Below, piece by piece: positions 3,031 through 35,319 of a stretch of 64,000 nucleotides of DNA. This DNA is from Lingula anatina. Taxonomy: Eukaryota > Animalia > Brachiopoda. The position numbers and the translations under genes are program-made. The stretch's first letter is position 1. Each line of letters starts with the position of its first letter. The DNA lies in assembly GCA_051362555.1 (NCBI GenBank), contig CM120643.1, positions 23,998,848 to 24,062,847 of the forward strand. The letters run 5' to 3'. Below the pieces are notes generated by a model. The model had not been told where the DNA came from, made no database searches, and worked only from the letters and a program-made list of their open reading frames with translations.

Positions 3031-3104
<74 letters not shown>

Positions 3105-7651: not shown

Positions 7652-8650
7652 TCATTCTTCATCATCATCACCATCATTTTCATCATCAACACTGTTGTCA
7701 TCGTTGTCAGCCTCCAATCGTACCAACTTTTGAAGGAGCTAAAATGTCGATAACATTTGCCTGTGTAATCGCTTTTATATTGTGCAGAACGCTACTGCTG
7801 CAGTGCTTCTTATGAAAAAATTATAATTTCGATCTACACATTCCACCCCACAATGTTTACTAAAAATAGAAATTACAGTGATTTATGCACACAGATTTTA
7901 GAAATACAGTCACACTAAAATGATTATACTTTAAAATGACATGAAATGATTATTTTGCAGACAGTAAAAACAATTTATTGTTAAATTTTCTTTGCAGTAT
8001 CATTTGAAAAATTGTCACCAGAATGACTTCAGTAAACACAAAAGAGATGGAATGTTGTGTTTTAAGAAATAGTATGAAACGAATAACATACGATCATTTC
8101 AGGAAAAATACATCAAAAAGCTTCAGTTATGCTCCGCTGATGATTTAATGATGACAACTGCTCAGATCAACCAAATACCGGTTTAGAAGTGATCGAATAA
8201 TGCTCCGTGTGAAAGTTCTTACCTCGTCGCTGGCTCTCTCTTCCGCTTCTTGACCGTCTTCTACTGCAGTGCTATCGCCAAAACGGCGACGACGGCGACT
8301 AAGGAATCGGCGGCGTCTGCGGCGGCGACGCGAATTACCTAAAAGTCGTATTAACAAAAAACTTTCTCTTCAGTAATATGAATGTGCTCTCAACTGCTTT
8401 GCCAAAAATATCTTCCCATGTCTATAACAATATTTATATATTATTCATTAGTACATGAAATTATGTTTATGACAAAACTAGTAAATTTTCGTAAGGAATG
8501 ATTAAACAAACAACTCAATGAAGACTAAGAAACTAAATCAAGACAATTCTATTCATCAATTTAGCCCACATGCTTACCTTCTGATTCCTCAAACATCTCC
8601 ACTAAGAGCATAATGGCCAAAAGCACGGCGAACCACTTCAGCTTGTTCAT
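7652..8650 (-). CDS. Secreted Arg-rich peptide precursor 1 (91 aa; signal / poly-Arg / acidic tail)
   Basis: Exons 8650-8578, 8338-8223 and 7738-7652; GT-AG introns of phase 1 and 0; open frame: MNKLKWFAVLLAIMLLVEMFEESEG-NSRRRRRRRRFLSRRRRRFG-DSTAVEDGQEAEERASDE-LLQKLVRLEADNDDNSVDDENDGDDDEE*. Exon structure is identical to two paralogues in the window. Confidence 0.88.
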
Positions 8651-8689
8651 AGTGAATGTTGGTGTAGTTACGGGATAGCAGGAGTCTTT

Positions 8690-8840
8690 TCAACGGCCAC
8701 GCACAAACTGAAGGCGAAAACGCCCAACTCTCAGTTTTGTAGCCCTGAAAATGTCAAAGTTCCCAAGACATGCGCAATAAGTGTAATCTACAAAATAAAT
8801 TTACTAATGCTGAACGTGATTGTGCTGAAAGAAGGCATGA
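8690..8840 (-). promoter_or_regulatory. Proximal promoter block of peptide gene 1
   Basis: Shares AGTTGGGCGTTTTCGCC-T-CAGTTTG and TGCGCATGTC with the upstream regions of genes 2 and 3. Confidence 0.55.
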
Positions 8841-10037
8841 CGTTGTTGCCTAGGTTTTTCGAAGTTAGCTACCTATCATTGAAGCTTTGCACGTCGAATC
8901 ATTATTATGCAAAACAGGCAAATAATTTCTGTCACCAGTTAAAGAAATATTTGACAAGAACATGCTTTTGCAAAAAATATGCATAAAACTTTTTATTATT
9001 ATTATTATTGTTATTGAACAGCAACTGCCAGGGCGTTTAATAACAAAAAGACAAAAATAAAGGGCAGTTATCCGTAGAGTGCATATATAAATATATATAT
9101 TATTTTTGCTATAAACTCTTCTTTTGAGAAATAAAAACCAACTCAAACAAGTCTTGACCAAGGAAATATATGGTTTGGATCTTGATTAAGTATAAGCATT
9201 TTGGTTCTCAGAATTATTTTGGATATTTGCTATGATATAATTTGTAATGCATGTAGGCCCTGCTGCCTATAATAACAGTTTGTGTGTGGAATTTCTCTAT
9301 TCCGAATTTCTTTTGGCATTGAAGTGGGAATGAAAGAAAAGTACCTTTCACGGAAGGGTCAAATATGTCTCGTCGTGCGAAACCAGCAAAACATACCCTA
9401 AGTGTCGACCAGTGAACTTGTCAACTCCCCCAGCCCCGTACGGTTGCTGTAACTGCATGCATGCGGTTTATTTCTTGCTTACACCAGTGACACATGCTGA
9501 ATCGCATATAAGCGGTCACTGCAGGCGTTTATTTTGTTTTAAGTAGGGATTCGTAAAAAGAGACCAATGGAGAAAGTCTGTATATATATATCTCTTGTAA
9601 AGCTTTTGGTATTTCAACGTTCTGATCTTAAGGACCATAAACCTCATCCAATAAAGGTTCATCTAAAGTATATCTAGTGTCATTATCATTTCAGCCCTCC
9701 TGGTTGGCATTGTCAGCTCACAACGTCTGCATTATACACAGCACAGAGCTGCGACACCAGCCGTTCACTCTATAGTTATTGATGAAAGGACTTTTTTTCA
9801 CATTCACACGAAAACATTCATTCGACTCCGTAATGCTTCATATTTTAATAAATAAGCATCTTATTGTTATAATACTGGGCTCCTGGTATTAACGCACTGC
9901 ACGACCCCCTTGTTCTTTGTGGGTCAATTCCCCATTTTCATCAAAGCACAATGGGGTCACCAGTGGAACAAACTATACACATGTTGGATCGGTATTTTTG
10001 TTTCTGTGCAGTCACATCTAGTGAGAGCAATATTTAA

Positions 10038-10074
<37 letters not shown>

Positions 10075-10107
10075 TCGTTTTAATTAATTGCAAAACAAAC
10101 CCAATCT

Positions 10108-10620
10108 ATGCTCCACTGTTGATATGACAGTAGCAACATCCTGTTATTAAATAAGATCGACTTACAACTATGGTATCTGTTATAACTCCTTTGGTATCTC
10201 CTGCAAAAGCTCTTACACCATCTTAGGTTCGCCCAACTCCAGAGAAACTCAAAATATATCAAAGTTCACAGGACATGGGCTGTTACTGCCTTTTGGATAA
10301 AAATTGTTTTCAGTGATGCTGCACGTGATTATGATGAAATTAAGTGGGCGTGTCGGTGCCACAGGTTTTCTGAACAACTTTACGACACCTTATATTTTTT
10401 ACAACTTGGGGCGTCGATATTAGGAATATAATCACCAAATATTTCTTTGGGCTACACTTTGTTAGATTTGCGTGTCAAAAACATATTTTAACTAAAAATG
10501 TTTCTGCCATTTTTAGCAGACCGAAGCATCTGCGCATGTCTTGGCAACAAAAAGATAAAATAACCAGTTATTTAAAGTAGAATTGTACCCATTCTACCAA
10601 AGTGATTTATAAAAGCACAT
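10108..10620 (-). pseudogene. Peptide-gene remnant A (promoter fused to intron-2 fragment)
   Basis: The promoter block (cgcccaact, aaagttcacaggacatg, tgcacgtga, aagtgggcgtgtc) abuts the exon-2 donor remnant GTAAGAGC and intron-2-like sequence. Coding exons are absent. Confidence 0.7.
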
Positions 10621-10730
10621 TGAGGTCACCAGTGGAACAAATGATACACATGCATTATACACACTATTTTTTACTTCTGTGCAGTCACATCTTCTTTGTG
10701 GGATCATGAAGCTGTATATGCGTGCACCTG

Positions 10731-10766
<36 letters not shown>

Positions 10767-12935
10767 GAGAACTGTTTAGAGTCTTTGAAACTAGGATTGA
10801 CTGCCAAGGCGATCGAACTGTTTGTGATTATGATTGGCAACCAGTAAACTTTCCAATACGTTCTAAACAAGTAACACATTGTTGACCAAAACTGCGATCT
10901 ACATTCTTTGCCCCAAAACATAATTAACAAAACAGCTCATTGTTTTGAGGCTATATCCTCAATATTTATATATACCTGATTACATGTACATGTAGACATG
11001 TAATCAGGTTCGCCTTACACAACGTTAACAACTAGTAAAATATCAGTAAAACAAACCCCTCATTCATGAAGATTATTTAAGATTATTTATTCACGACGAT
11101 AAGCGCACCTGATGTGAAGTATTATGCCTCCTTCGTCTGCATGCTCACATGATACAATTACAAATCACAACGGGCATGATTCAGCTAGATGCCGCCGTGT
11201 TGACTTCTTTTGATTACTGAAAAGCTTGCTCTCCATCATGGTGATCTCACCCGGTATCTAACCTTAGAGGATAGATATAGTCTTTGCTATTTTTGCTTTA
11301 AAAAGTTTATTTTGAAAAATAAAAGCCAACACAAGCAGTTATTGGGGATATAAGGTTAGGATCTTCGATAAGTATAAAATATTAGGGGTAAGTTGCGACT
11401 GATCATTACCTCACAGCGAACCATGCCTTACACCCACTGCACTATGACAATTTAAAATATTTACTTTACATGCTACACTACACTTGGCTAACAAAGTTAA
11501 AGGAACTTTTGAACATCCCCCCAGCCATATCTTTCCGGTAAAAATTCTTACATTTCCTAATTCAGATCTCAAAGATAAAACCTTTCCAGTGATGAAAGTT
11601 TATCTGAAGCGTGACAAGAGTCTTTATTTTCTCAGCCGCCTGCATACCATACCAGTGTCCATTCATTCAGAAACATCTTGCTTGGTTTGGCAGTGCGCTG
11701 GGGAGCAACCGAGTGTAACGTACGCTATTGACAGTGCTGTATATTCAATCCCGTCGTGGTCATCTCACTACTTAAGGTCTGTGGTATTCTCATGCCCTCA
11801 CGAGTAATGTGTCAAAATATTCGAATTCACGCCTTTTACAATCCTTTAATCAAGTGTGGAAAGCTGCACGTAGACTGCAATGACAAAATGTCAAAAAGTC
11901 CTCTGAGAATGCCCTTCAGATTCAGACATCAAAGAAGCAAACCTACGAAAGATTCAGTTTGTGAATGCCTGGTTGTGCAGGTTTTAATTTCTAAATTCGT
12001 GATGCTGATTTTGAAGCCAAGTAACTTTTTTCACAAAGAGTTTTGTAGTGTAGCACAAAAAAAACCAATTTTGATCCTGGCAAAGTACAATGAGTGTAAG
12101 ACAAGGTCCACTGTGGCATATGTAATGTTGATAGGTCACAATTTACCCTGGTGCTGCTTCTTATTACCTCGTTTAAATCGATGCCTTTGATTGCCCTTTT
12201 CTTAAATATGAATAAATATTTTCCTTGGATAAAAGCAATTTGTTTTTCAGAATGTGAGATGGAAAATAAAATGAAAATAAACGCAATGAAAGCACATTGA
12301 TATCGTTAATTTTAAAACTTGATTTTAAAATTTGATTTGTTAAAGATTCGCATGAACTTGACCAGAATGTTTCCATTGTAGTTGCTGGGGCAAAAACATT
12401 GCTATGAGCCTCTCTCACAAAAATCAGACGGCCCATAGAAAGTAAAAATATCTTTGATGCCATCCCCTTGTAGGCATTGTGCTCATGATCGCTACCATAG
12501 GCTACTATTAGCTGTTACACATTAATCCTATTTTGTACATGCTAGGTGATCTCTGGGAGAGAGTAAAGTTGGCAAAATTGTTTCGGAGAAAGGATTCTAG
12601 CTCCTATTGTCACGTACTGGGGTATGCATATCGATACTATCATGACAAATTAAATGTCAAACCTATCGCTGCATGTATTCTAAGCGGTACAAAAGATCAA
12701 ACGGATGGCCGGAGCTGGTGATTCAGTAGTGCAGTACCAGTGAGTTCTCCATTTATGTGCTCTTATTGGCGCAGTAATTGTCCGGTGAAACGTGACAGAG
12801 AGCAACTCCCCCCTTATTGGCGCAGTAATTGTCTGGTGAAACGTGACAGAGAGCAACCCACCCCCCCCAAACTATACACATGTTGGATCGGTATTTTTGT
12901 TTCTGTGCAGTCATATCTAGTGAGAGCAATATTTA

Positions 12936-13012
<77 letters not shown>

Positions 13013-13048
13013 GATATCGTTTTAATTAATTGCAAAACAAACCCAATC

Positions 13049-13560
13049 TATGCTCCACTGTTGATATGACAGTAGCAACATCCTGTTATTAAATAAGATC
13101 GACTTACAACTATGGTATCTGTTATAACTCCTTGGTATCTCCTGCAAAAGCTCTTACACCATCTTAGGTTCGCCCAACTCCAGAGAAACTCAAAATATAT
13201 CAAAGTTCACAGGACATGCGCTGTTACTGCCTTTTGGATAAAAATTGTTTTCAGTGATGCTGCACGTGATTAAGATGAAATTAAGTGGGCGTGTCGGTGC
13301 CACAGGTTTTCTGAACAACTTTACGACACCTTATATTTTTTACAACTTGGGGCGTCGATATTAGGAATATAATCACCAAATATTTCTTTGGGCTACACTT
13401 TGTTAGATTTGCGTGTCAAAAACATATTTTAACTAAAAATGTTTCTGCCATTTTTAGCAGACCGAAGCATCTGCGCATGTCTTGGTAACAAAAAGATAAA
13501 ATAACCAGTTATTTAAAGTAGAATTGTACCCATTCTACCAAAGTGATTTATAAAAGCACA
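13049..13560 (-). pseudogene. Peptide-gene remnant B (copy of remnant A)
   Basis: Same sequence as remnant A, lying in the second unit of the tandem duplication. Confidence 0.7.
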
Positions 13561-13681
13561 TTGAGGCCACCAGTGGAACAAATCATACACATGCATTATA
13601 CACACTATTTTTTACTTCTGTGCAGTCACATCTTCTTTGTGGGATCATGAAGCTGTATATGCGTGCACCTGGAGAGAGAGC

Positions 13682-13714
<33 letters not shown>

Positions 13715-15944
13715 AGAGAGAGAGAGAATTGTTTAGAGTCTTTGAAACTAGGATTGACTGCCAAGGCGATCGAACTGTTTGTGATTATGATTGGCAACCA
13801 GTAAACTTTCCAATACGTTCTAAACAAGTAACACATTGTTGATCAAAACTGCGATCTACATTCTTTGCCCCAAAACATAATTAACAAAACAGCTCATTGT
13901 TTTGAAGCTATATCCTCAATATTTATATATACCTGATTACATGTACATGTAGACATGTAATCAGGTTCGCCTTACACAACGTTAACAACTAGTAAAATAT
14001 CAGTAAAACAAACCCCTCATTCATGAAGATTATTTATCACGACGATAAGCGCACCTGATGTGAAGTATTATGCCTCCTTCGTCTGCATGCTCACATGATA
14101 CAATTACAAATCACAACGGGCATGATTCAGCTAGATGCCGCCGTGTTGACTTCTTTTGATTACTGGAAAGCTTGCTCTCCATCATGGTGATCTCACCCGG
14201 TATCTAACCTTAGAGGATAGATATAGTCTTTGCTATTTTTGCTTTAAAAAGTTTATTTTGAAAAATAAAAGCCAACACAAGCAGTTATTAGGAATATAAG
14301 GTTAGGATCTTCGATAAGTATTAAAATATTAGGGGTAAGTTGCGACTGATCATTACCTCACAGCGAACCATGCCTTACACCCACTGTACTATGACAATTT
14401 AAAATATTTACTTTACATGCTACACTACACTTGGCTAACAAAGTTAAAGGAACTTTTGAACATCCCCCAGCCATATCTCTCCGGTAAAAATTCTTACATT
14501 TCCTAATTCAGATCTCAAAGATAAAACCTTTCCAGTGATGAAAGTCTTTATTTTCTCAGCCGCCTGCATACCATACCACTGTCCATTCATTCAGAAACAT
14601 CTTGCTTGGTTTGGCAGTGCGCTGGGGAACAACCGAGTGTAACGTACGCTATTGACAGTGCTGTATATTCAATCCCGTCGTGGCCATCGGGGGTCACTGC
14701 TTGGAGGTCTGTGGTATTCTTATGCCCTCATGAGGAACGTGTCAAAATATTCGATTCCACGCCTTTTACAATCCTTTAATCAAATGTGGAAAATAAGACG
14801 CAGTGACAAAATTGGCGACATAAAAAGTCGTCTGAGAATGCCCTTCAGAGGAAGATATTAAAGAAGCACGCCTGCAAAAGGTTCAGTTTTTCACTGGGGT
14901 CACTGCTTGGAGGTTTGTAGTATTCTCATGCCCTCATGAGGAATGTGTCCAAATCTTAAAATTCACACTTTTTACAATAATTTAATCAAATGTGGAAAGC
15001 TGTACGTAGACTGCAGTGACAAAATGTCGAAAAGTCCTCTGAGAATGCCCTTCAGATTCAGACATCAAAGAAGCAAACCTACGAAAGATTCAGTTTGTGA
15101 ATGCCTGGTTGTGCAAGTTTTAATTTCTAAATTCGTGATGCCGATTTTGCAGCCAATTAACTTTTTTCACAAAGACAGTGTAGCACGAAAAGCCAAATTT
15201 TGATCCCGCAAAGTACAATGAGTGTAAGACAAGGTCCACTGTGGCATATGTATTGTTGATAGGTCACAATTTACCCTGGTGCTGCTTCTTATTACCTCGT
15301 TTAAATCGGTGCCTTTGATTGCCCTTTTCTTAAAATTGAATAAATATTTTTCCTTGGATAAAAGCAATTTGTTTTTCAGAATGTGAGATGGAAAATAAAA
15401 TGAAAATAAACGCATTGAAAGCACCTTGATATCGTTGATTTTAAAATTTGATTTGTTAAAGATTCGCATGAACTTGACAAAATGTTTCCATTGTAGTTGC
15501 TGGGGCAAACACCTTGCTATGAGCCTCTCACACAAAAATCAGAGGGCCCATAGGAAGTAAAAATATCTTTGATGCCATCCCCTTGTAGGCATTGTGCTCA
15601 TGATCGCTACCATAGGCTACTATTAGCTGTTACACATTAATCCTATTTTGTACATGCTAGGTGATCTCTGGGAGAGAGTAAAGTTGGCAAAATTGTTTCG
15701 GAGAAAGGATTCTAGCTCCTGTAGTCACGTGCTGGGGTATGCATATCGATACTGTCATGACAAATTAAATGTCAAACCTATCGCTGGATGTATTCTAAGC
15801 GGTACAAAAGATCAAACGGATGGCCAGAGCTGGTGATTCAGTAGTGCAGTACCAGCGAGTTCTCCATTTATCTGCTCTTATTGGCGCAGTAATTGTCCGG
15901 TCAAACGTGACAGAGCACCCCCACCCCCAACTCCCAATCCCCGA

Positions 15945-16025
15945 TATAGAGAGGCCGTTCCCATTCATATGTACAGGTAAGCCTCGCACTAGATTTTGAG
16001 CCACTTAGGTCAGGCTAACCCTTAA
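15945..16025. repeat. Short dispersed repeat (also ~20810-20895 and, inverted, ~24860-24945)
   Basis: Shared core cccattc...acaggtaagc..ctagattttga.ccactt.ggtcagg.taaccct. Confidence 0.7.
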
Positions 16026-16283
16026 CATTATAAATATAATAAAACATTATGAGTTTAAGCGAGCGGGAAGTGGTTAACGTGGACTTAAACGCAGGGTAAT
16101 GAATCAAAGTACTAGAAAGAAACTAAAGAAATTCTATTGAAACTATCTTTCGGAATCGTGACCACCTAGTTATGTTGTAGCGGAGCCAATACAACAGTAG
16201 GCTGGTAAAATGCGAGACAGATCTAGACTGAATGGTTTATGCCATTAATATCTGTATCAATTTACGTTTTGAATTTGAGGTGA

Positions 16284-17690
16284 CCCACAGCACAACATAG
16301 CACAACACAACACAGCACAGCACAACATAGCACAACATAGCACAACATATCACAGCACAGCACAACACAGAACAGCATCCCGCATGAAAATGCAGTAGTA
16401 TCGAAGTAGCAAAGAAGCATTAACGCAGTAGTGGTGTGGAGCATATTTGCAGTAGAAATGCAGTATAGCCTACTGCAATTCTACTTCAAAAATTACATAG
16501 GGTTGTACAGAGGAGGAGCATTAATGCAGTAGATTAGCAGCATGATAGAAGCATGTTTCAAATATGCTAATTAGCTCCCACATCGAAGCAGATTTGAAGC
16601 ATGTTTGCAGTATGATTGCAGTAGTCTACTGCGCTGGAGTATCTACTTCGTTTTCGTGCGGGATAGCACAACACAACACAGCACAGCATAGCACAACACA
16701 ACACAGCACAGCATAGCGCAACACAACACAGCACAGCATAGCACAGCACAAAATAGCACAACACAGCACAGTACAGCACAACACAGAACAACATAGCACA
16801 TGACATCACAACACAGCATAGCACAACACAACACAACACAGCACAGCACAGCACAGCACAAAATAGCACAACACACCACAGTACAGCACAACACAGAACA
16901 ACATAGCACATGACATCACAACACAGCATAGCGCAACACAACACAGCACAGCACAGCACAGCACAAAATAGCACAACACAGCACAGTACAGCACAACACA
17001 GAACAACATAGCACATGACATCACAACACAGCACAGCATAGCACAACACAACACAGCACAGCACAACATATCACAGCACAGCACAGCACAGCACAAAATA
17101 GCACAACACAGCACAGCACAGCACAACACTGAACAACATAGCACAACACATCACAACACAGCACAGCATAGCACAACACAACACAGCACAGCACAGCACA
17201 GCACAACATACCACAGCACAACACAGAACAACATAGCACAACACATCACAACACATCACAACACAGCACAGCATAGCACAACACAACACAGCACAGCACA
17301 GCACAAAATAGCACAACACAGCACAGCACTGCCCAGCACAACACAACACAACACAGCACAGCACAGCACAGCATAGCACAACACAACACAACACAGTACA
17401 GCACAGCACAGCACAAAATAGCACAACACAGCACAGCACAGTACAGCACAACATAATACAGCACAGCACAACACAGCAAAACACATCACAACACATTGCA
17501 ACACAGCACAGCATAGCAACACACAACACAGCTAAGCACAACAGCACAACACAAAGCACAGCGCGGCACGGCACGGCACGGTGCAGCACAGCACAGCACA
17601 GTGCAGTACAGCAGAGCAAAACACAGCACAGCACAATTAACATATAACAGCACAGAACAGCACAATACAGTACAGTACAGCATAGTGCAA
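16284..17690. repeat. Degenerate pentanucleotide array (CACAG/CACAA/CATAG)n with higher-order periodicity
   Basis: Direct reading shows two blocks, ~16284-16375 and ~16665-17690. The variant gcacaaaatagcacaac recurs at ~110-130-bp spacing over much of the array. Confidence 0.95.
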
Positions 17691-18916
17691 ATGCATCTCC
17701 AGTACAAAAATTAATTGTAAATTAAAATCCAAACTGACCAAGGTCTTACAAAGGCTACTGTTTTGTAACAGGTAGACATCTGGTAGATAGTAACCCAGCA
17801 GGCAAACGACATTGATTCTACGTTGATTCAACGTTGATCCACCAAAATTAACGTTGATTCAACGGTGAAGTGGGATTGTGTTAGCTGAACACATTCAAGT
17901 TCCCCAACCACATTTCTGTACCACATTATTGCTGAAAAGGTATTTTTATTCTGTGGTTACAAGATTAAGACAGACAACTTACGTTCTACTGTCGTATATG
18001 GATAGGTTTTCAGATGCATTTTGATACCAATTTTCATTACGTTTTACGAATTATTTGCGAAAAAGTATATAGCAGTGAAGTATACTTAGGAGCATAAATT
18101 TAGCGGTGACTAAATAAAGCATCGCACTTAGCAACGTTTCACAAAAGGGCAATATATTTTATTCTTACAAATAACAATCAGAATCACATTTTTGTTCTTA
18201 GACAGATACAAATTGGCGAAAAGAGATTGTTCACAATACTGATTTGATTTCATGAACTTTAGGTAGCGTAATGTGTTTTTTTGTTTAATTCAGTCGTCCT
18301 CCACGTACTTTGTGCTTTGTTACATTCAGAAATACTCCAGAAAGATTCAGAATGTTAAATAAATACGCGACAAACAAGTATATGTCTTTATCGTTTTAAT
18401 GTATACAGAGAGCCACTTGGTTTTCAAACAAATTGTGGTAAATGCGAAAAGAATTGAAACAAAATATTCCCGCCAAAATGTACTATCCTAATATCCATTA
18501 TTACAAGAACGAAATAACTTTGAGAAAACAATGTAAGTATAGCTTGAAGTGTTTATTGTAGATAACAGTCCAAAGCATGGCTTTTAAACATTAAAACGGT
18601 TATATTTGGGGAAAATATAGATTCACAAAGAGAATAAAAATGTCTGAATAACTACTAAAGTTTGTGTGCCTGTCTGTGCAAATCATGCTATCACTTTCGA
18701 CAATGTTTTTCAAAACTCTTTTTCACTCACTCATGAAAAGTTTAGAAAACCTTGGTAGTTCAAATATTCTCGAGATTCGGAATTATCTGTAGCAGTTCGA
18801 ATAAACCGAACGTTAAACCAAACTGTTGAAGATGATCATGTTCCATTTACATAATGTCTGAATATGCGATTTAAAAACGTTCTCATCATTGTGCTCACTG
18901 GTTTTGGTGGCTGTTC

Positions 18917-19740
18917 TCATTCATCCCTATCATCATCATGATCGTTGTTATCCTCGATGTTTGCCAACTTTTCAAGAAGCTGAAATGCGTAGAAAAGCTG
19001 CTTTAAAAACCGTCTCCTTTTTACATTGTGCACGATTCTACTATATTTCCACCATAACATAAAGGAAAATTTTACCTGGTTGATCAAAGTGATTACTACA
19101 TGTACATGTGTAACATAATCTACTGGAAATAATGCCAAAGACATCTCAAATGAAATAAAACATTAACAGGTAGTAAGAGCAACATCAGTGGTAAGGATAT
19201 AAATTGCGACATCATGTTATATAATTACATAAAAAACCTAAGGTATGCTCCACTGTTGATATGACAGTTGCAACATCGTATTATCAAATGATATGGTATC
19301 TCCTGCAAAAGCTCTTACCCCGTCTTTCGTTCGCCCAACTCCAGTTAATAGAAACTCAAAATATATCAAAGTTCACAGGACATGCGCAGTAACTATCTTT
19401 TGGATAAAAAATGTTTTCAGCTATACTGCACGTGATTATTAAGTGGGCGTGTCTGTGCCATGCAGATTTTCTGAACAACTTTACGACACCTTATGTTATT
19501 TACGACTTGACGCGTCGATATTATGAATAATGACCAAATAATTCCTGGGGCTATTCTTTGTTAGATTTGCGTGTCAGAAACATATCTTCACTAAAAAAAT
19601 TGTTTCTTCAAATTTTTTTATCATTTCAAGCAGACCGAGGCACCCGCGCATGTCTTGATAACAAAAGGACAAAATAAAAATAGCCAGCTATTTGAAAAGA
19701 GAATTGCACCCATTCTACCACAGTAATTCATTCTACCCGA
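18917..19740 (-). pseudogene. Peptide-gene remnant C (exon 3 intact; exon 1 and most of exon 2 deleted)
   Basis: ttcag|LLEKLANIEDNNDHDDDRDE* at 18979-18917 is homologous to exon 3 of the intact genes. The donor GACGGG|GTAAGAGC at 19318 lies within ~15 bp of the promoter motif cgcccaact. Confidence 0.8.
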
Positions 19741-21992
19741 AGCTGTTTTAGTTGACATTACATTATTAAGTCAAACCTTGAATAGTGACTTTGCATTTTT
19801 TTGCACTATTCGCACTCCAAACATACATTGAAACAGGCATACAGTGCATGACATGTGAATAAAAATATTCTGTCGTTGTGTAACGTTGACAAACTGGATA
19901 AGAAAGACACTGCATTCAACCAGATTATTAAAAAACATGATGATGACAATTTTGTTTCCATGCAGTCCCATTAAATTCGTGGCATGATTTAAACACCTAG
20001 ACCGATATTCCAGTTACAAGTTTTCTGGTAACAAAGTGGTCTCTCCACATCAATCAATACTTTACTGATTCGCCAGTGAAAGTACTAACTATAAAGCAAT
20101 TTTACAGATTCATCGCTGCAGTTGCCCAATATATCCTCATCGTTAATGTCAGGTGAAAACCATATATACATATATTTATGCATATGTATCCGTATGGTGG
20201 GAGAGAGAGAGAGAGAGAGAGAGAGAATTGCATGTCCAGATGACTCTGATAGTCGGGGTCACGACTTTTCTCAAATTCAAGCTGACCAAACAGATTAATC
20301 TGAATGGAAGCTGTTAAACATATCAACGCGATTTGACGAAAGCAAGTCTCAACCTTTGGTCGAAATGGCGTTCCTCGAGCAAAATCATTTGCCATTATAC
20401 CATATCGGCACCTTTTTGATTGCAAGAGCTTATGGTTTTGATATGATAGTTGATATCCAAATAAAAAAGCATGTTACGCATGTTACGCATGTTTATACAT
20501 TTCTTATTAATTCAAAGGATTTTTTAACATCAAAAAACTAAAATATTAAAATATCTGAGGGTTTTTTCTCCTTTTTTTTTTTTGGGGGGGGGGGGGTATG
20601 CACAATTGTCCGGTCACATATGCTAATTACAGAATGGGGAATGCACCAATTGAATCTATGTACCAGTACTGAAATAAATAGAAGCAATTAAACAAACATC
20701 AATATCATGCTCATTAGGCAACAGTTAATATTAGAACATTTAGAACTTTCGTATCGTAAGACTACAAAAACATTTTAATAAAAAAAAATTCTACCAAAAT
20801 GTAACCCGTGATAGAGAGTCCACTTCCCATTCTTTTGCACAGGTAAGCTTCTCCCTAGATTTTGACCCACTTAGGTCAGGCTAACCCTAACCATAACAAC
20901 TAAATGGAGGGCGGTCTTTCTGTAACACAGATCCTCAGTTTCGTTACATCAGCGATGAAAGACACAATATGAGATATTTTCTTATCAATTTTTTGTAGAT
21001 AGAAAATAGACCCAAGATGATTTGATTTTCATAAGGATCAGATTATGATTGGGGATATTAAAGAATATCTTAGTATTGACCAAGCAACATAGTAGAGAAT
21101 CCCCCATGGGCGAACAGGACTGTGGATAGCTATTGGCAATGCATTAGGGGAAGTTGCGCCTCTGTGGTGACAGATAAACCCTAGATGTTAAGTTTCCCAG
21201 TCTGTCACTATTATAATTATTGTTAACTCACTGGTCCTCAAAACTAAGTTTAAGGCTTGCTTGTTGAATATGCATGTCTGTCGGCAGCCTGGGTGAACCA
21301 GTGAGAAGCACATTATAATAAACTCGTTCCTGTCATGGGCGGTCAGAATTATATTTTGATTTATTTGTTGATGCCACAGTAAAAGTAAACCTGTTGAAAG
21401 AAAAGGGGGAGAATATACCTGGTACCTTTCTTTCTTTCAAGTTCAACTGCGATTGATGACCCCTTGTCACTCTGTTTAGAAAAGATAACATGTTGCATTT
21501 GTCATGGATATGATTTAACCCCCAGATGTATGTAATTTAAGACAACGAATGAATGTTTACAGATTTGTGCTAAAACATTGCTTTAACTATGCTTTTATTT
21601 TGGATGTAATCTCATTGTAAGGCCCAGGCTGTGACTAGGCAATAACATGCATGATAACGCTACACCCCAAAGGCACATGGCTGTGCAAGAGAGTGACTTT
21701 ACCAGCATGGCATCAACAGAGTGGGCTGGCCTGCAAGAAACCTGGCAGAACACCTGTTGAAAACCTGTGGAATGAGATTGAAAATCAAGTGACAAAGGAA
21801 AATACCATATACTTAGACTGGGTTCCCATGCCTAGATCAATCCATTTGTATCGGTCTAACTCCCTGGGTAGTCTCAATAAATTGCTATCATCTTAAACGG
21901 CTTAAATGTCTGTCGCGCCTACTAAATCAGCTATGGGATAAAGATAATTGAGAAAGGTTTTCACCCCGACTATTAAAGTTATCGGGACATGC

Positions 21993-22032
<40 letters not shown>

Positions 22033-22860
22033 GGATACATATGTGGTTTTCACCTGTCATAAACAATAAAGATATATCATGTGACTGCAGCGATAACTCT
22101 GTAAAATTGCTTTTATAGTTAGTACTTACACTGGCGTACCAGAACTGATTGACGTGGACAGATCACTTTGTTACTGAAAACCTTGATGCCACGAAGGAAA
22201 TGGGACTGCATGGAAACAAAATTGCCACCAACATGTTTTTTAATAATCTTCTTGAATGCAGTGCATTTTTTGTCAAGTTTGTCAACATCATATAATGACA
22301 GAATATTTCTATTCATATATTCCAAGCACTGTATGCCTGTTCGAATGAATGTTTAGAGTGTGGATAGTGCAAAAAATGTTAAATCACTATTCAAGAACTA
22401 ACTTAAAAATGAAATGTCAACTAAAACAGCTTGGGGTGGAATGAACCACTTTGGTAGAATGGGTACAATTCCCCTTCCAAATAACTGGCTATTTTTATTC
22501 TATCCTTTTGTTACCAAGACATGCGCGGGTGCTTCGGTTTGGTTGAAATGACAAAAAATTTGAAGAAACAGTTTTTAGTGAAAATATGTTTTTGACACGC
22601 AAATCTAACATAGAATAGCCCAAGGTATTATTTGGTCATTATTCTTATAATATCGCCGTCCCAAGTCGTAAATAATATAAGGTGTCGTAAAGTTGTTCAG
22701 AAAAACTGCGTGGCACCGACACGCCCACTTAATTTCTTCATAATCACGTGCAGTGTCGCTGGAAACATTTTTTTATGTAAAAGGCAGTAACAGCGCATGT
22801 CCGATGAACTTTGATAATTCTTAGGTGCTATGAACTTCTATAAAATTAAAAGTTGGGCGT
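19335..22860. repeat. Inverted paralogous upstream regions (19335-20245 vs 21980-22860)
   Basis: Reverse-complement matches throughout, e.g. gagagaattgcatgtcc / ggacatgcaattctctc and tttacgacaccttat / ataaggtgtcgtaaa. Confidence 0.85.
21270..21800 (+). mobile_element. Tc1/mariner transposase remnant
   Basis: Frameshifted fragments MHDNATP, HGINRVGWPARN and PVENLWNEIENQV resemble the Tc1 DDE motifs (QDNAxxH, WPxxSPDLNPIENLW). Confidence 0.65.
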
Positions 22861-22880
22861 TTTCGCCTCCAGTTTGCGCT
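22700..22880 (+). promoter_or_regulatory. Promoter of peptide gene 2: GC box, E-box, TATA, Inr-like
   Basis: CACGCCCAC ~22720, CACGTG 22745, GCGCATG 22793, TATAAAA 22839, and CCAGTTT about 30 bp downstream of the TATA. ATG at 22930. Confidence 0.6.
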
Positions 22881-22929
22881 TAGCCATTGCCAGGACTCCT
22901 GCTCTGCCACAAAGCTGCCAATACGCACA

Positions 22930-23807
22930 ATGAACAAAGTGAAGTTGTTCGCTGTACTTTTAGGCGTAATGCTTTTGGTGCAATTGTTTGCTGAATCGGA
23001 AGGTAGGCACAGCAGTGTATAGGCTAAACCTACAGATGAAATCGTCCTAATATTTTTCCAGTTTTCATAGAGTCCCCTGTATAATAATCATCCTTCATTA
23101 AGGTGCACAATAACTTAACACAATGAAGTTTTGTCAGATATGCTTTTGATACTTGTTTCTTTCTTTTTTTTTCGCAAAAAAATCAGATGTCAAAGAAATT
23201 GTTTGCATGTTACTACAAAAAAGTTTGAAGCAAATGTTACTTTTAAAGGCATATTTGGCCGCCGCCGCCGCCGTCGCCGTTCCATACCAAGCATCCGCCG
23301 CCGCCGCATCTGTGTTGGCGATAGCACTGCAGTGGAAGACAGCAACGATGAGGGAGAGAAAGCAAGCGACGAGGTAAGAGCTTTCACACGAGACGCCGTA
23401 AAATCAGTTCTCAGCCGGTCCTTGGTTGATCGGATCAGTTGTCATTATCAACTCATTAGCGGAGCATGACTGAAGCTTTTTATTGCATGTTTTCGATTTT
23501 AATGCGTTTGCAATAAACACTGTTAGTGCTGCCTGCAACATGTAATTTATTTTAAAGATTATCATTCTAACATTATTTCCATAAGCTGTACATATTATCT
23601 TATCGTACCAACAGTCCATCACTGGTAAGTTTAGTACAATAATTGCATGTTCCTTTATTTCATGACAAGATTATAGTACATTGTACACTGTGTAAAGACT
23701 GGTGATTACCATGGTAAATGTTCTCGGCATTTCAGCTGGTTAAAAAGTTGGTAGACCTCAAGGCAGACATGGATGACGATAACGACGATGAGGATGACGG
23801 TGAATGA
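22930..23807 (+). CDS. Secreted Arg-rich peptide precursor 2 (89 aa)
   Basis: Exons 22930-23002, 23249-23373 and 23736-23807; GT-AG introns of phase 1 and 0: MNKVKLFAVLLGVMLLVQLFAESEG-IFGRRRRRRRSIPSIRRRRICVG-DSTAVEDSNDEGEKASDE-LVKKLVDLKADMDDDNDDEDDGE*. Confidence 0.9.
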
Positions 23808-25735
23808 TTGAGCCAGTCCATGTTTTGATGACAGCCATGAGAGAGAGAGAGAGAGGGAGGGAGCGCACTGATAGAATATCAAATTCGCATATTCAGACAT
23901 TATAAATGTTAATGGAAAGCAATCATATTCAATATCTAGTTTACTTTAGCAATCAGTTCGTTCGGACAATTCCAAACAACTGGCGTTCCTAAGGTAACTC
24001 AGACAGTCGAGCTTTTCTTAATAAGTTTTGATCAGTTGTAAAAATACCTTCTAAAAATATTCAGAGTTTTTTTCTTTTCTTTGTTCTTAAATCTTTTTTC
24101 TTCTTGAAGCCTTTTTTTTATTATTATTCTCTCAGTGTTATGATGGATAACGTTTTTTTTTTTTTTTTTGCACTATTTTGCATTTTACCAAAATTCTTAG
24201 AAGTTGTATGGAAACCAAACGACTCTCTCTGTATGCAATAAACGACAGATAGATCACTTTATTTGTAATGTATTTAATTTATATTCTGCAGCTGTACAGA
24301 GTATTTTTTTCATTAAGTTGCACACGACAAATGACATTTTATGTGAAAGAGGATTTAACTATTTAAAAAGTGTGTATAAGCTACCAAAAGTTCAAAGAGG
24401 CAAAAGTATTCTGAAAAGTTCCTTTCCAATTTGTTATCTCAGTCAAAAAGGTGATAATGATAGATAAAGGTTTGCTACCAGGGATCACTCTGCCAAATTG
24501 AATTTTCATTGAAAAAATAAGAAAAGAAAAAAGCGATGTTCACGAACCATTGCACTACCCGCCCTGCACTTTAATTCGATATTAATAATATTTTAGTGAA
24601 GTATTTTGCTCTAAATGACTTGCTAGACGTGTATACCGCTTGTTTTTCCAAATATTTTAGAAGCAAATATCGACACCAGGTACTTTATTTGAAGGGTTAT
24701 ATTGTTTTAAAGGTATAAATTGGGAAAGACATTGGCTTTGAAGGATATGTATAGGCAAAAAAATATTGCATTGGGATATCGTCAAACGTGGATAGAGTTC
24801 CTCTAATTACAGTGACTGTTGCTTTCAACAGAAAGTCCGCCCTCAACCCAGAGAGTTATTGTGGTTAGGGTTAACCTGACCAAAGTGGGTCAAAATCTAA
24901 GGCGAGGCTTACCTGTACAAATGAATGAGAAGAGGGCTCCCTATCATGGAGGACTTTCTGTCACGTTACACAGGACAAAAGAATGGCCACAAACAAACTC
25001 TAAAACGCACGCACAAACGAGCAGTGCAATTGACTGTCGTGCGAATTTTTTTTTTTTTTTTTTTTTTGCAAGTAGTAACTTTACTTCAAAAGAATGTACT
25101 CAACAATACGGGTTCTATATCTTTATTGGAACTTAACTTTGCGAAAAAAAGAGTCACAGTTTTAATGCCATACGTGAAGACCACATGCGCATATACAGTA
25201 TGTTATCAATTAATATACAGGTATGTCGAACAAAACCCAATCTATTGCTTTAATGTGTTTGTCTAAAAAGCCTAATTTTGACAAATCAAGTTGATGAAAT
25301 GTGACTTATAACATGGGATGTTTTTGCGATTTTTTTCTTGTTCAGTTTTCTCTTGCTCTGATCATAGCTGAGCCTCATTTTAGTCTGAAACGGAGGCATG
25401 AAAAATAACTGCGTTTGAAGTCTTACGATTTAAATGTTGGTGATGCATATTAAACAAAAATTATACGGTCACCTTAAGTCATCAATTATTCGCAATAAGT
25501 GGCATTTTGATTGGAAAAAATAATCTTAAAAAAATTACCTAACCACTGTACGTACATACACGTGCTTTGAAGAGGTGGTTGCTCATGATCAACTGAGTAC
25601 ATGTAAGTCCAGCATATTTTTTGTAAATTTTGATTCCTCAATATTATATAAGATGATTAGCGCGCGTTGCATAATAAGTTGTTTATAATGAACTTGCAAA
25701 CATGCCAAGAATTTTGTGTTTAAACTTTCTATTAA

Positions 25736-26882
25736 AACCACTTTAAACTGAGCTGCGGTCTTTGTGAGCCCTTATACAACCATTAATATGGATAGAACAC
25801 TCAACGGTCGCTAAAGCAAAAAAAATGTGTCATTGTGTACAAGTTCCTGAAAGCCTTACAAGTTCTTGTGCTCCTTTCGAACGTCCAAATCTTGACTTTC
25901 CCTGTAGCACTATGAGCACCCTGTGCGTCCACTGAGCACCTTGCCTGCCTCTTTGCGCGTCCTCTGTGCAGTGCGATTAGAGACGTTGCAGGCGACCCTG
26001 GAGCGATGTTTGAGCACCGTTTGAGCACCCATCGGCGACCATTGGCGATCAGCAAATTTCCATTCTACAAGGACAAACGTCGTGTGAACGTCCTTTGGCG
26101 ACTGCTGGACGACTTATTTTTTTAGTGCTTGGATATATTCTGGGCCTTTTATATGTTTTAACTAGTTCTAACCCAGTCAGCCAATTAATAGCCAGAAAAT
26201 AAATAATTGGCGATGCACTATTAACCTCTATTGCATACTACAAGGTCTGCATGCATTAATACGTCAGATGGCCATAGCAGTCTTTAAAAGAAAGACCGAT
26301 GAACCTTTTGGGCACGCCACTGGCTGACACAATACAGGTCTCGATCCGTTTACAACAGACAAACTCTGCAAAAACTGCGACATGAACTGTCTCGAACAGC
26401 GATCGAATATTCGTTCTATACTCATGTGCTCAAGATTTTAGAAACATAATACCATAGGAGTTCAAACTGGAGGCTGGTCTGAGGCTACTAGCAGCTTTAA
26501 CCCTCGGATTTCTTGCCTTAGCCCATGTATATATATATATACAATAAAAAGTTGATTGTTTTACGTGCAGGCCTCTGACCGATCACTGAGCATCCATTGT
26601 GCAACCAAAGCGATGTTTGTGCCTCCTTCCTGCAACAACAGCGAAGCTCGTGCGTCCCTTTTCCCTCGCTTGAGCCACCTTGCAGCGACCAACAGCTTTC
26701 TCTTCGTTCCTTTGTGTGTTTGGTTTGAACATGTTCGAAACTTTGCAGCTACCATGGCATCAACGATGAAGCGTGAACATTTTGTGTACCATCTTAGCAA
26801 TCATCGTGTCTCCTTTGACCCTCCAACGGTAACCTGACCAGTTTCGTGGTCGCACAAAGGTCGTACAAGTGTGAAGCGGGTT
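25736..26882. mobile_element. Possible degenerate Harbinger-like element
   Basis: TAA|AACCACTTTAAACT...AGTGTGAAGCGGGTT|TAA with weak TIRs and GC-richer internal sequence. No recognisable ORF. Confidence 0.35.
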
Positions 26883-27621
26883 TAAGTTGAGGCTGGTTTC
26901 TTATTATTCGGTCCTATTTTGAACATGATAATATACAAACGACGTGAAAGCAGTTTTTTGAGATTGTGATAGTTGAACTGCCATACGTTCCTCAAACACA
27001 TTTATGCACAATTGCTTACTGGACAGGTATTTTAATTAAGCGGTAAAATAACTATTTGTTCAGTCACATATACCAATAAGAGAATGGGAATGCACCAAGT
27101 GAATCTACACACAATAGACATAGAAGTCTCACCTCTACTGAACCAATACTTTGGGGGAGATAAATGGCTGTGGAATGATATGCTGTTGGTATCATTTTAT
27201 TAACATCAAATTTCACAAAAAAATATGTAGACCAGGCATTTTTACTACTCAAGATCTGCCTACTTTGATTATTGATTACTATTATTTGATTACTCTGATT
27301 CAGGGGTTGACACTTCTATTGTCCTTGTATACCAGTATTGAAATGAATGGGATTGAACAAACATCAATATCATGGTCACTAGTTCATAAACATCTCGAAC
27401 TTTCGCATTGAAACATTAAAAAACAAATTCTACCAAAATGAAACCGGAAATTGCAACATTAACAAATCACAGGCCAATTGTCATTATTATTGTTGCTATG
27501 ATAAGTTTGAAAGCAACTTTCCTATTGGTCGAAGATAAACAAACACTTCATGTTTCATCAGACTTTTATCATGTCAGTGAACTGGACATTACAAATACCA
27601 GGTATAAAGTATAATTTCAGT

Positions 27622-27881
27622 CAGTGGCGGATTCCCCCCCCCCCCCCCCCCCCTTCGATTTCTGAAAACTGATAATCCCCTCTTGAAATTAGAATTTGAC
27701 CAGCTGAATCATAGTTATAAACCGTACCGAATTGCACCGTTCGCCCTCTAAAATACCAAAATTTTTAGGGTCCCTTCAACAGGCCCCGTGACCCACGCCG
27801 GGGGCGGGGTGGGGGGAGGTCGGCTTCACATCCCCGGCCCCCTCCCCCCCCCCCCTTCAAATAATCCTGGATCCGCCCCTG
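27622..27881. mobile_element. MITE with CAG(T/G)GGCGGAT terminal inverted repeats
   Basis: CAGTGGCGGAT at 27622 and ATCCGCCCCTG ending at 27881, with poly-C/G tracts inside. Confidence 0.7.
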
Positions 27882-28765
27882 ATTTTAAAAGCATATATTT
27901 AACGGTTCATAAAAGCAAAATGATTGTGAATCACACCTACCGAAGTAGCATGAATTTTTTAAGCATCATTCAATGTAATCTAAGGAACACTATCCACGTT
28001 TGACGATATCTCAAAGCAATACTTTTATGCCTACATATCCTGTAAAACCGGTTTATTTCCCAATTAATAACTTAAAAAAAAAACACAATATAACCCTTCA
28101 AATAAAGTACGTGGTGTCGATATTTGCTTCTAAAATATTTGGGAAAACAAGCGGTATACGCTACTAGCAGGTCATTTAGAGCAAAACACTTCATTAAGAT
28201 ATTATAAACATCGAATCAAAGTGCAGAGTGGGTCGAACAATTATTCAAGAGTAGGAGAACATTGCTTTTTTTCTTTTTTTTCAATGAAAATTCAATTTGG
28301 CATAATGATCCCTGATAGCAAAACTTTATCCATCAAAATCACCTTTTTGTTCTGAGATACAAAAAATGGGAGGAAAATGTTCAGAATATTTTTTACCCTT
28401 TTTGTAACTTCTACACACTTTTTAAACAATTAAATCCTCTTTCACATAAAAATTTAATGTTATTTCTTGTGTGGAACTTGATAAAAAACTACTCTGGACA
28501 GCTGCAGCATATAGGGCCTAAAATAAATACATGACAAATCGAAATATATATTTGACGTTTTATTGCATACAGAGAGCCGTTAAGTTTGGAATCCATACAA
28601 ATTCTAAGAATTTTGGTAAGATGCAAAATATTGCAAAAAAAAAACGTATTCCATCATAACAACAACGAGAGAATAATAATTAAAAGGGTCACAAGAAGAA
28701 AAATTAAGATTAAAGATACACAAGAAAAGAAAAACTCTGAATATAAATAACAAGGGTTGCGGTGG

Positions 28766-28818
<53 letters not shown>

Positions 28819-29083
28819 TTCGTCAATCTGCTGGCGCTATTTTTAGAAGGTATTATTACAACTGATCAAAACTTATTAAGAAAAGCTCGACTGTCTGAGT
28901 TACCCAAAGAACTACAGTTGTGTGGAATTGTCCGAACGAACTGATTGTTAAGATAAACTAGATATTGAATATGCTTGCTTTCCATTACGATTTATAATGT
29001 CTGAATATATGAATTTGATATTTTGTCAGTGCGCGCTCTCTCTCGTTCTCTCGTGGCTGCCATCAAAACATGGGCCGACTCAA

Positions 29084-29753
29084 TCATTCACCCTCATCCT
29101 CATCATCAACATCGTCGTTATCGTCGTTATCGTCATCCATGTTGGCCTTGAGGTCTACCAACTTTTTAACCAGCTGAAATGCCGAGAACATTTACCATGG
29201 TAATCACCAGTCTTTACACAGTGTACAATGTACTATAATCTTGTCATGAAATAAAGGAACATGCAATTATTGTACTAAACTTACCAGTGATGGACTGTTG
29301 GTACGATAAGATAATATGTACAGCTTATGGAAATAATATTAGAATGATAATATTTTGAATAAATAACATGTTTTGCAGGCAGCAATAACAATGTTTATTT
29401 TAAACGTATTTTAATAAAGCAAGATCATTACAGATAAAAATGCGATAAAAAGTTTCAGTCATGCTCCGCTGATGATTTGTTAATGACAACTATCCGATCA
29501 TCCAAAGACCGGCTGAGGGCTGATCTTATGGCGTCTCGTGTGAACGCTCTTACCTCGTCGCTTGCTTTCTCTCCCTCATCGTTGCTGTCTTCCACTGCAG
29601 TGCTATCGCCAACACAGATGCGGCGGCGGCGGATGCTTGGTATGAAACGGCGGCGGCGGCGGCGGCGGCGACTCCAACCTATAAAGGTACATTTTGCATC
29701 AAACCTTTTACAGTAGCATGTTAACACTTTCCTTGAAATCCCATTTTTTTGTC

Positions 29754-29784
<31 letters not shown>

Positions 29785-30003
29785 ATGAAAGCATTTTTGA
29801 CAAAACGTCATAGTATTAAGTAATTGTGCACCCTAATGAAGGACGATTATTTTCAAAGGACTCTATGAAAACTGCAAAACAAACAAAATGATTTAATATC
29901 TACGTTCAGCCTATACATTGCTGTGCTTACCTTCCGATTCAGCAAACAACTGCACCAAAAGCATTACGCCTAAAAGTACAGCGAACAACTTCACTTTGTT
30001 CAT
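29084..30003 (-). CDS. Secreted Arg-rich peptide precursor 3 (95 aa)
   Basis: Exons 30003-29931, 29678-29554 and 29173-29084; GT-AG introns of phase 1 and 0: MNKVKLFAVLLGVMLLVQLFAESEG-WSRRRRRRRRFIPSIRRRRICVG-DSTAVEDSNDEGEKASDE-LVKKLVDLKANMDDDNDDNDDVDDEDEGE*. Confidence 0.9.
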
Positions 30004-30659
30004 TGTGCGTATTGGCGGGTTTGTGGCAGAACAGGAGTCAGAGCTTCGCGCAAACTGGAGGCGAAAACGCCCAACTCTTATTTTTATTGAAGCTTAGCAA
30101 ATGTCAAAGTTTCTAGGGCATGCGCAACAATTGCATTCTTTGAAAATGTTTTCAGCGATATTGCACGTGACTCCTTCGAACGTGGGCGTCTGGTTGTCAC
30201 CACAACTGTTTATTATACGTTGTTTCAACAATATGAAAAATGATTATATCTTTGATATCATTAATCTAGAAAGGTTTTTGTGTAAACAATGTTTTCACTG
30301 AAAAGAAGTTTCCACGAAAAACGTTGCTTCTTCCTTTTTTATCTTTCTTTAACTAACCGAGGCATCTACAGGGGTCTTCGTAAGAATTGAACAAAAAAAA
30401 TTGCCTGGAAGAAGAAATTGGACACATTTTAAAACATCCGTTTGAATTCTCTCTTCGTAGGCATTTCTTTTTTTATTTCTTTCCTATACATTGTCACCAA
30501 ATACAGCCATTAAATCATGATTTGCTGGACATTTGAATAAAAAACAATCTATAGTTATTATGTTGGCACACCTGGTCTTCACGTATGGCAGGTTCAGTCC
30601 CCGACTCTTTGTGATCCAATCCAAGCTGAAAAAAATCACTAGGTACGTCATGTTCAGTT

Positions 30660-34273: not shown

Positions 34274-35319
34274 GACTGCATTCCCAGAGATTAAGATCGA
34301 TCCATCTGGATCCACCTAACTCCCTTGGGGTTCATCCTAAATTGCTGTCAGCCGAGCGCGCACCATAGTTAACTAGAGGATCATTTTTTATTTTTGACCA
34401 CAGGTTGTCTGCCTTGCCAAGCCTTATGTTTTATTTTTCCGGAGTTCAAAATTTATTTTCCATTACCGTACTGCACATTTTGCTTTCACCACCAATATGT
34501 ACTTTTTGATACAGCGTAACTCGAAAACAGTATGGAATACAAAAAAACGGAGACCACCTCCAGTGTTGCTCTACAAAATGCAAAAAAGAATGGGTCTCTA
34601 GCATTAACGGTTCCCGAATTAGAGACAGTTTTCAGTTTCGGTATCTTATGGCTGCTACTCCCGTGAAAATGCACCGATTGACCCCAAATTCACGGAGATG
34701 AAAGATGACCTGAAGGGTAACACTTTCCAATAATATTATTGGTTAAGTCTGTGTGGTGTATGCATAACAGGGCAAATAAATTTTTTTTCGTAAAAAAATT
34801 AGTTTTTTTGAAAATTTTGGCCCGTTTGACCTTGAAATAAAGGTCAAAGGTCAAATCCAAGGGCATATTTGAAATCTACACATATGACTTTTGGAAAGCC
34901 GTCTGTAGAAATTTTTCCCATTATTCCTTCCGTAGGGTAGATAATTAGCATTTAATTTTGCCATTTTTAGACAAGGGTGCATTGCAATGAGTGCCACACC
35001 TAGACCCCAATACCGACAAAGCCCAAATTTTACGTGGAACGAGTTGAGATTATAGGTGACCTAAATCCAAGAGATGGGTACGGAGGCCCTTACCGTCTAG
35101 GAGGAGAAGCGGTAACGGTAGCCGTCCGGCGGAGCCGCAGGAGCCGGCAGAGCCGGCGGAACGATCCGGACGGGACTAAAACCATGTGTGCTAACGCTGG
35201 TGGTACAATTACCCCCTTACAGCTTTTAGTAGTAGACATTTAAGCCTGTTAAGCTGACACCAACCTAGTGAGACTCCCCAGGGGGATAGATAGATCTAAA
35301 TATCTATGGGAATGGGGTC
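34274..35319. mobile_element. Tourist/Harbinger-like MITE, copy 2 (inverted, interrupted)
   Basis: TTA|GACTGCATTCCCAGAGAT...ATCTATGGGAATGGGGTC|TTA, split by the element at 34373-35208. Confidence 0.75.
34373..35208 (-). mobile_element. Internally deleted Helitron/Helentron-like element
   Basis: Keeps both termini (TTGTACCACCAGC ... CTAG) but lacks the satellite array. It is inserted between A and T with no target duplication relative to the empty MITE at 58465-58680. Confidence 0.8.

Follow-up and report, generated by a model that had tools for sequence, protein, structure and literature searches.

The stretch analysed here, called the window, comprises 64,000 nucleotides of contig CM120643.1 (assembly GCA_051362555.1) from the brachiopod Lingula anatina and carries a cluster of three related genes, g1, g2 and g3, whose predicted products are secreted precursors with an arginine-rich core and an acidic tail. 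Six-frame translation of the window showed Arg-rich frames at about 8330 (minus strand), 23260 (plus strand) and 29670 (minus strand), each accompanied by an antisense shadow. The gene models were rebuilt by a script that enumerated the splice choices at the three loci, resulting in three homologous models with intact copies in both orientations. The exons are as follows, with Arg runs written as R8, R7 and so on.

8578..8650, minus strand: g1 exon 1 (coding part), 24 codons plus 1 nt, signal-like leader, phase-1 donor
8223..8338, minus strand: g1 exon 2, 19-residue core including 13 Arg in runs R8 and R5, then Gly and the beginning of the tail
7652..7738, minus strand: g1 exon 3, an amphipathic stretch and an Asp/Glu-rich end with the stop; AATAAA lies at 7244
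22930..23002, plus strand: g2 exon 1 (coding part), signal-like leader; many read starts at 22896-22908
23249..23373, plus strand: g2 exon 2, 22-residue core with 11 Arg (R7, R4), one Cys, Gly, tail start
23736..23807, plus strand: g2 exon 3, acidic end with the stop; AATAAA lies at 24237
29931..30003, minus strand: g3 exon 1 (coding part), leader identical in protein sequence to that of g2
29554..29678, minus strand: g3 exon 2, 22-residue core with 12 Arg (R8, R4), one Cys, Gly, tail start
29084..29173, minus strand: g3 exon 3, acidic end with the stop; AATAAA lies at 28564

The resulting precursors consist of 91, 89 and 95 amino acids (aa) for g1, g2 and g3 respectively. All six introns are bounded by GT..AG, intron 1 lies in phase 1 and intron 2 in phase 0 throughout, and each reading frame contains a single, terminal stop, thus confirming the original prediction of three intact three-exon genes with shared phases and canonical splice sites. 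The residue counts given there also proved exact, with cores of 19, 22 and 22 aa holding 13, 11 and 12 Arg and tails holding 21, 19 and 22 Asp plus Glu. The exon-2 acceptors were preferred because they are homologous across the three genes, and models with a longer exon 2 or a shorter exon 3 were ruled out, the acceptors at 23736 and 29173 being backed by reads. Arg runs of at least seven residues occurred five times in the six frames of the window (three sense, two antisense shadows) and in none of 60 order-3 Markov simulations of it. This null, together with the third-position bias and the spliced reads reported below, ruled out chance or microsatellite read-through, and the hydrophobic leader ruled out a protamine-like nuclear protein.

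All three precursors (89-95 aa) are composed of a 25-aa signal-like leader, a core of 19-22 aa with 11-13 Arg, a Gly and an acidic tail. The leader shows an n-region charge of +2 and a best 11-residue hydropathy of 3.1-3.3 (3.3 in g1), and the (-3,-1) rule is satisfied after residue 25 in g1, g2 and g3; positions 21, 23, 27 and 28 also satisfy it in some genes. By charge, hydropathy and cleavage rule it is therefore a predicted signal peptide, in agreement with the hydrophobic 25-aa leader described earlier. The cores of g1, g2 and g3 carry charges of +13, +11 and +12, with a computed pI of 12, an Arg content of 50-68% (13/19, 11/22 and 12/22), a mean hydrophobicity of -0.9 to -1.6, no His in any of the three and one or two Phe each; in five of six cases the Arg run directly precedes Phe or Ile. 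The tails of 46, 41 and 47 aa have charges of -18, -15 and -18, so that the balance claimed between core (+11 to +13) and tail (-15 to -18) was returned by calculation for all three genes. The start of the tail, GDSTAVED, is invariant in the three genes and is the most conserved stretch, including the Gly-Asp border, while the C-terminal end differs in length between genes. A stretch of 11 residues around the beginning of exon 3 is moderately amphipathic (moment 0.41-0.58), a feature retained even in a remnant copy, and could, speculatively, serve as a sorting signal.

Transcription was assessed by aligning four of the nine RNA runs labelled Lingula anatina to positions 22500-30400, the region of g2 and g3. 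Run X7 contributed 23,926 of 11.05 million reads (2,165 per million) and run X9 9,095 of 11.51 million (790 per million), which pile up on the exons and the 3' untranslated regions (UTRs); in runs X1 and X4 (12.4 and 9.5 million reads) the depth was zero in every exon bin of the region. Reads joined across intron 2 numbered 1,298 (X7) and 561 (X9) for g2 (23373 to 23736) and 151 and 38 for g3 (29554 to 29173), and a further 1,705 and 829 reads joined exon 2 of g2 to exon 3 of g3 through the same splice sites. The intron-1 donor was used in 5,535 (X7) and 2,438 (X9) reads, which pass from exon 1 through six letters not found in the window into an Arg run. The predicted junctions were thus recovered for intron 2 of g2 and g3 and for the intron-1 donor, but the exact intron-1 junctions of the window copies were not among the joints listed (best 15 of 51). 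Decoding by hand of the reads, among the best 12 of 80 rows of between-letter variants, gave no fewer than two other core starts: LH-R7-F, of which one form has a shortened spacer, and LFG-R8, a spacer-free variant represented by 143 (X7) and 20 (X9) reads. These data show splicing of the family and a transcription that reaches very high levels and is confined to some samples. Within the same region, positions 24860-25100 and 26990-28040 had low depth in all four runs with many loose ends, as for interspersed repeats rather than genes.

The ratio of nonsynonymous to synonymous divergence (dN/dS), computed over 56 gap-free codons of signal and tail, was 0.195/0.817 (0.24) for g1-g2, 0.205/0.660 (0.31) for g1-g3 and 0.008/0.093 (0.09) for g2-g3, showing that these two parts are under purifying selection. 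Third positions account for about half of the differences (21/40 and 19/39). Between g2 and g3, 4 of 22 core residues differ, compared with 1 of 56 elsewhere (Fisher P 0.02). The two genes are nearly identical over exon 3 and the 3' portion of intron 2 (23537-23803 in g2, 29106-29372 in g3), whereas intron 1 is 79% identical.

Three gene remnants, to which the original prediction did not refer, lie between g1 and g2, and an upstream block aligns across genes and remnants:

18330..20274, minus strand: remnant of a fourth copy, whose upstream region shares about 80% identity with that of g2
10060..10610, minus strand: upstream remnant and donor only, within a 2-3 kb tandem duplication
13002..13551, minus strand: second duplicate with the same upstream remnant, aligning with the upstream regions of the genes
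22700..22929, plus strand: upstream block aligning across the three genes and the remnants, with common short motifs

The fourth copy retains an exon-2-like donor near 19318, an open exon-3-like piece at 18979-18917 and patches of 3'UTR; both its signal exon and its core exon are missing. The recent 2-3 kb tandem duplication (9969-11960, 12868-14889 and 14900-15915) is 92-93% identical overall and up to 99% locally and holds the upstream remnants. With these remnants, the birth and death of copies is visible in the window. The motifs kept upstream are TCACGT, GCGCATG (which differs in one remnant) and ACGCCCAC (absent in g1), and a GGCG-TTTT-CGCC palindrome lies about 60 nt 5' of the ATG in g1, g2 and g3. 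These motifs appear to resemble E-box, NRF1 and KLF/Sp sites.

All homology searches used single exons as queries, so that distant relatives alike in composition alone would escape them. Exon 2 of g2 searched against proteins of 63-203 aa gave 57 candidates, all of them worse than E 10, and a profile of the three exons 2 searched against proteins of 20-72 aa gave one candidate and no match. A HMMER profile search of 1.84 billion representatives returned two matches, both to unrelated repeat proteins. In a positive control the spliced g1-g3 proteins scored E 5e-13 to 2e-22 with the profile, which shows that such proteins would be picked up at E values no higher than 5e-13; with the g2 exon 2 query, g2 and g3 scored 2e-13 to 5e-17 and g1 just E 6. 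In Pfam, the exon-2 pieces of g1 and g3 had no match, and both the read-through frame of g2 (E 0.074) and g2 exon 1 against Metchnikowin (E 0.033) stayed below the cut-off, as did the best PDB hit (E 0.18). NCBIfam matched none of seven pieces, the ESM Atlas gave an uninformative top score of 0.78, and a 24-base exon-2 pattern had no match in metagenome contigs. In the earlier reading the peptides were not recognised as a named family, and the HMMER, Pfam, NCBIfam and PDB searches agreed with this.

A description of the family was not found in the literature searched; the main paper on Lingula immunity (Gerdol et al. 2018, Dev Comp Immunol 82:7), cited in PMC7203481 and PMC9835746, lay outside it and may describe these genes. 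The word brachiopod was absent from the marine-peptide reviews searched, including the excerpts of PMC10608444, and a library of 390 lophotrochozoan antimicrobial peptides contained four brachiopod rows, all big defensins, and none from Lingula. DSTAVED and R7 had no match in one supplement of a proneuropeptide survey that covers six brachiopods, with mass spectrometry on a nemertean (PMC8557429), and the terms searched were absent from one supplement of the Lingula genome paper (PMC4595640). The family is apparently undescribed and lineage-restricted.

Elsewhere in the window, satellite arrays with a 143-146 bp unit occupy 3100-4540, 35640-37730 and 38540-40265, the last two in mutually inverted orientation. 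Two 720-nt arms, 37778-38497 and 40467-41186, are 99% complementary, with a third arm copy at 34567-35142, and the inverted arrays and arms possibly form a foldback-type mobile element. A 5-bp-unit array at 16266-17700 has a strong A/C strand skew, which gives rise to spurious open reading frames rich in Cys/Val/Leu and His/Ser/Thr/Gln. Over 97% of its length, the reading frame at 60727-61875 shares 99% identity with Lingula anatina LOC106179232, whose long exon (60697-61878) gave four matches at E 1e-20 and a weak MATH-domain match (E 0.0014, below the cut-off). The exon at 49944-50342 matched Pfam DUF7937 alone, below the cut-off, and we take it to resemble the first transmembrane part of a DHHC palmitoyltransferase.

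By analogy with known precursors, we consider it probable that g1-g3 encode lineage-specific secreted cationic host-defence peptides with a 19-22 residue antimicrobial core. Of the original prediction, gene structure, splicing, the signal-like leader and the charge balance are supported; the innate-defence role advanced there is still the likeliest reading and rests on analogy, and the cell-penetrating activity and the storage in neutralised form would be possible features of it. Signal peptidase would cut after ESEG, at the exon 1/2 border, and the acidic tail (-15 to -18) would keep the core (+11 to +13) masked while the precursor is transported and stored. A protease would then cut at the Gly-Asp border, where a dibasic site is lacking, and the Gly would donate a C-terminal amide; the single Cys of g2 and g3 may join two cores. 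The free core would bind anionic microbial surfaces and permeabilise or cross them, as is thought for peptides of the myticalin C type, a group of mussel antimicrobials. The layout matching that of the myticalins would favour a defence role, and clustering, remnant copies, variable cores and restricted high expression are behaviours typical of defence peptide families. A more specific version is put forward tentatively, namely that natural amidated, partly disulfide-dimerised R7-R8 peptides, released without a dibasic site, might cross membranes and hit microbial nucleic acids or polyphosphate in a non-lytic manner.

Several observations weigh against a defence role. The cores are barely amphipathic, with a helical hydrophobic moment of 0.09-0.30 and 3-7 hydrophobic residues, and the core/tail border (F-G-D or V-G-D) has no dibasic (Lys-Arg) site. 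The leader was assessed by simple rules (n-region, hydropathy and the (-3,-1) rule). Arg runs are targets of convertases and trypsin-like enzymes, so the core may not survive intact. None of seven myticalins inhibited Vibrio anguillarum, possibly owing to the high-salt medium (PMC5577615), which suggests that a peptide acting largely by charge may have little potency in sea water. Both expressing runs, X7 and X9, carry one study code, and 20,137 of 23,926 (X7) and 8,068 of 9,095 (X9) reads were just 90-95% like the window, so that expression was demonstrated for the family and not for the exact window alleles; such reads may derive from other paralogues, other populations or a cryptic species. 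Finally, the contrast between core and rest in g2 and g3 is confounded: three of the four core changes adjoin intron 1, and a part of intron 2 is identical at 179 of 180 nt, pointing to a likely gene conversion between the inverted copies that can account for part of the contrast.

Among other explanations, it appears unlikely that the protein stays uncut and is secreted to form part of a material, as a block polyampholyte of mucus, pedicle adhesive, cuticle or the calcium-phosphate shell in which Arg would hold phosphate or sulfated sugars and the tail would hold calcium. The very high and sample-restricted expression, the missing dibasic site between core and tail and a tail that is conserved rather than drifting would all suit such a protein, and the Lingula shell does consist of calcium phosphate (PMC4595640). 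However, no secreted acidic proteins are reported in the shell proteome of the same paper, an argument of little force should its search set have lacked these genes, the variable core and the remnant copies suit defence better, and the Gly-Asp border is invariant.

We give little weight to a released core that acts on eukaryotes, either by deterring predators or foulers or lysing their cells, or as a gamete or egg-coat factor. Some tunicate peptides of like layout are indeed haemolytic (PMC10608444). The same precursor logic and fast core evolution would be expected in this case, and the expressing runs carry coded labels with no tissue named, but the low hydrophobicity of the cores argues against lysis of neutral membranes and Pfam gave no match to a toxin family. 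Least probable of all, and very improbable, is that the product is a signalling or anionic peptide made from the acidic part or the short spacer, with the Arg runs serving for processing or as a pro-piece that is discarded: the runs do contain convertase consensus sites and GDSTAVED is the most conserved stretch in all three genes, but seven or eight Arg far exceed what a cut site needs, five of six runs end before Phe or Ile, which convertases disfavour, one read variant is spacer-free, the motifs are absent from the proneuropeptide supplement and the tail end varies in length. The shell proteome without secreted acidic proteins and the absence of the motifs from that supplement favour host-defence peptides.

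If the more specific, tentative version is correct, Brachiopoda would have its first linear defence peptides in g1-g3, and the synthetic R8 delivery peptides a counterpart in nature. The cores would show the upper reach of selection on Arg content in a secreted peptide. The family makes up about 0.1-0.2% of the reads in two RNA runs, yet it is unmatched in the protein collections searched, which hold a neighbouring Lingula gene. As the cores are short and cheap to synthesise, their function is directly testable.

The layout of these precursors is of a known kind. Octa-arginine and Tat are, respectively, a synthetic and a viral nuclear-protein cell-penetrating peptide; the R8 runs of g1 and g3 and the R7 run of g2 resemble them but belong to predicted secreted animal peptides. 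The original prediction compared the precursors with those of clavanins, styelins and piscidins, and this comparison stands for the precursor layout but not for the closest analogue, those peptides being amphipathic helices whereas the core moment here is 0.09-0.30. In clavanins and styelins the anionic C-terminal pro-piece directly follows a Gly, as at the Gly-Asp border of g1-g3, and the candidate amidation Gly is likewise present in all three genes. The clavanins and styelins of Styela clava are amidated linear cationic peptides forming His- or Phe-rich helices (PMC10608444), in contrast to the Arg-block cores of low amphipathy found here. The piscidins and pleurocidins of teleosts share with g1-g3 a conserved signal, a variable mature peptide, a C-terminal prodomain and clustered genes (PMC7369796), but they usually have four exons, the mature peptide being distributed across exons 2-4, whereas g1-g3 have three coding exons with the core on one and lack the amphipathic helix. 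Dicynthaurin and halocidin of Halocynthia, in which a single Cys joins two chains (PMC10608444), are a possible model for g2 and g3, although they are helical and differ in composition.

The closest known system is myticalin C of mussels. Myticalins combine a conserved signal, a hypervariable cationic core and an anionic extension and are proven linear antimicrobials, C6 and C9 being inhibitory to E. coli at 4 uM and to A. baumannii at 2 uM (PMC5577615). Like them, g1-g3 encode a signal, a cationic core and a C-terminal extension that is anionic, and against a myticalin core pI above 11 and more than 10% Arg they show a pI of 12 and 13/19, 11/22 and 12/22 Arg. In myticalin C precursors the ECEG signal end is followed by an Arg run in 10 of 10 C rows (PMC10414684, supplement 1), and their length in these rows, 84-110 aa, is similar to that of the g1-g3 precursors. 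Neither myticalin C nor g1-g3 has a disulfide framework, and clustered genes, pseudogenes, variation between individuals and high restricted expression are common to both; the mean cumulative expression of myticalins is 3,420 TPM, tissue-restricted, in units that differ from the reads per million used here (PMC12294457). Expression in the gill, a mucosal tissue, is among the myticalin traits; of the four runs examined here, which bear coded labels, two were positive.

There are differences as well. Of the myticalin signal consensus MKGxxLLLLTIxxALCMIxECEG, compared by eye, just the E-x-E-G end is common to g1-g3, which also lack the Lys-Arg (or Arg-Arg) site between core and extension. Myticalin genes have an untranslated exon 1, signal and core together on exon 2 and a phase-1 intron in the extension, whereas g1-g3 have separate signal and core exons, with one intron in phase 1 where the signal ends and another in phase 0 within the tail. 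Arg makes up 50-68% of the cores here and 31% on average of myticalin C, where it lies in N-terminal stretches (PMC12294457), and the candidate amide-donor Gly of g1-g3 has no counterpart in myticalin C. Myticalins are restricted to mytilid mussels, and Lingula anatina belongs to a different phylum. Given the missing Lys-Arg site, the intron layout and this taxonomic limit, the genes are like myticalin C and not members of that family. Homology and convergence with myticalin C are both compatible with these data, and the family bears on whether mussels and brachiopods reached one precursor design independently; it is an Arg-extreme version of the known design of signal, cationic core and anionic pro-piece.

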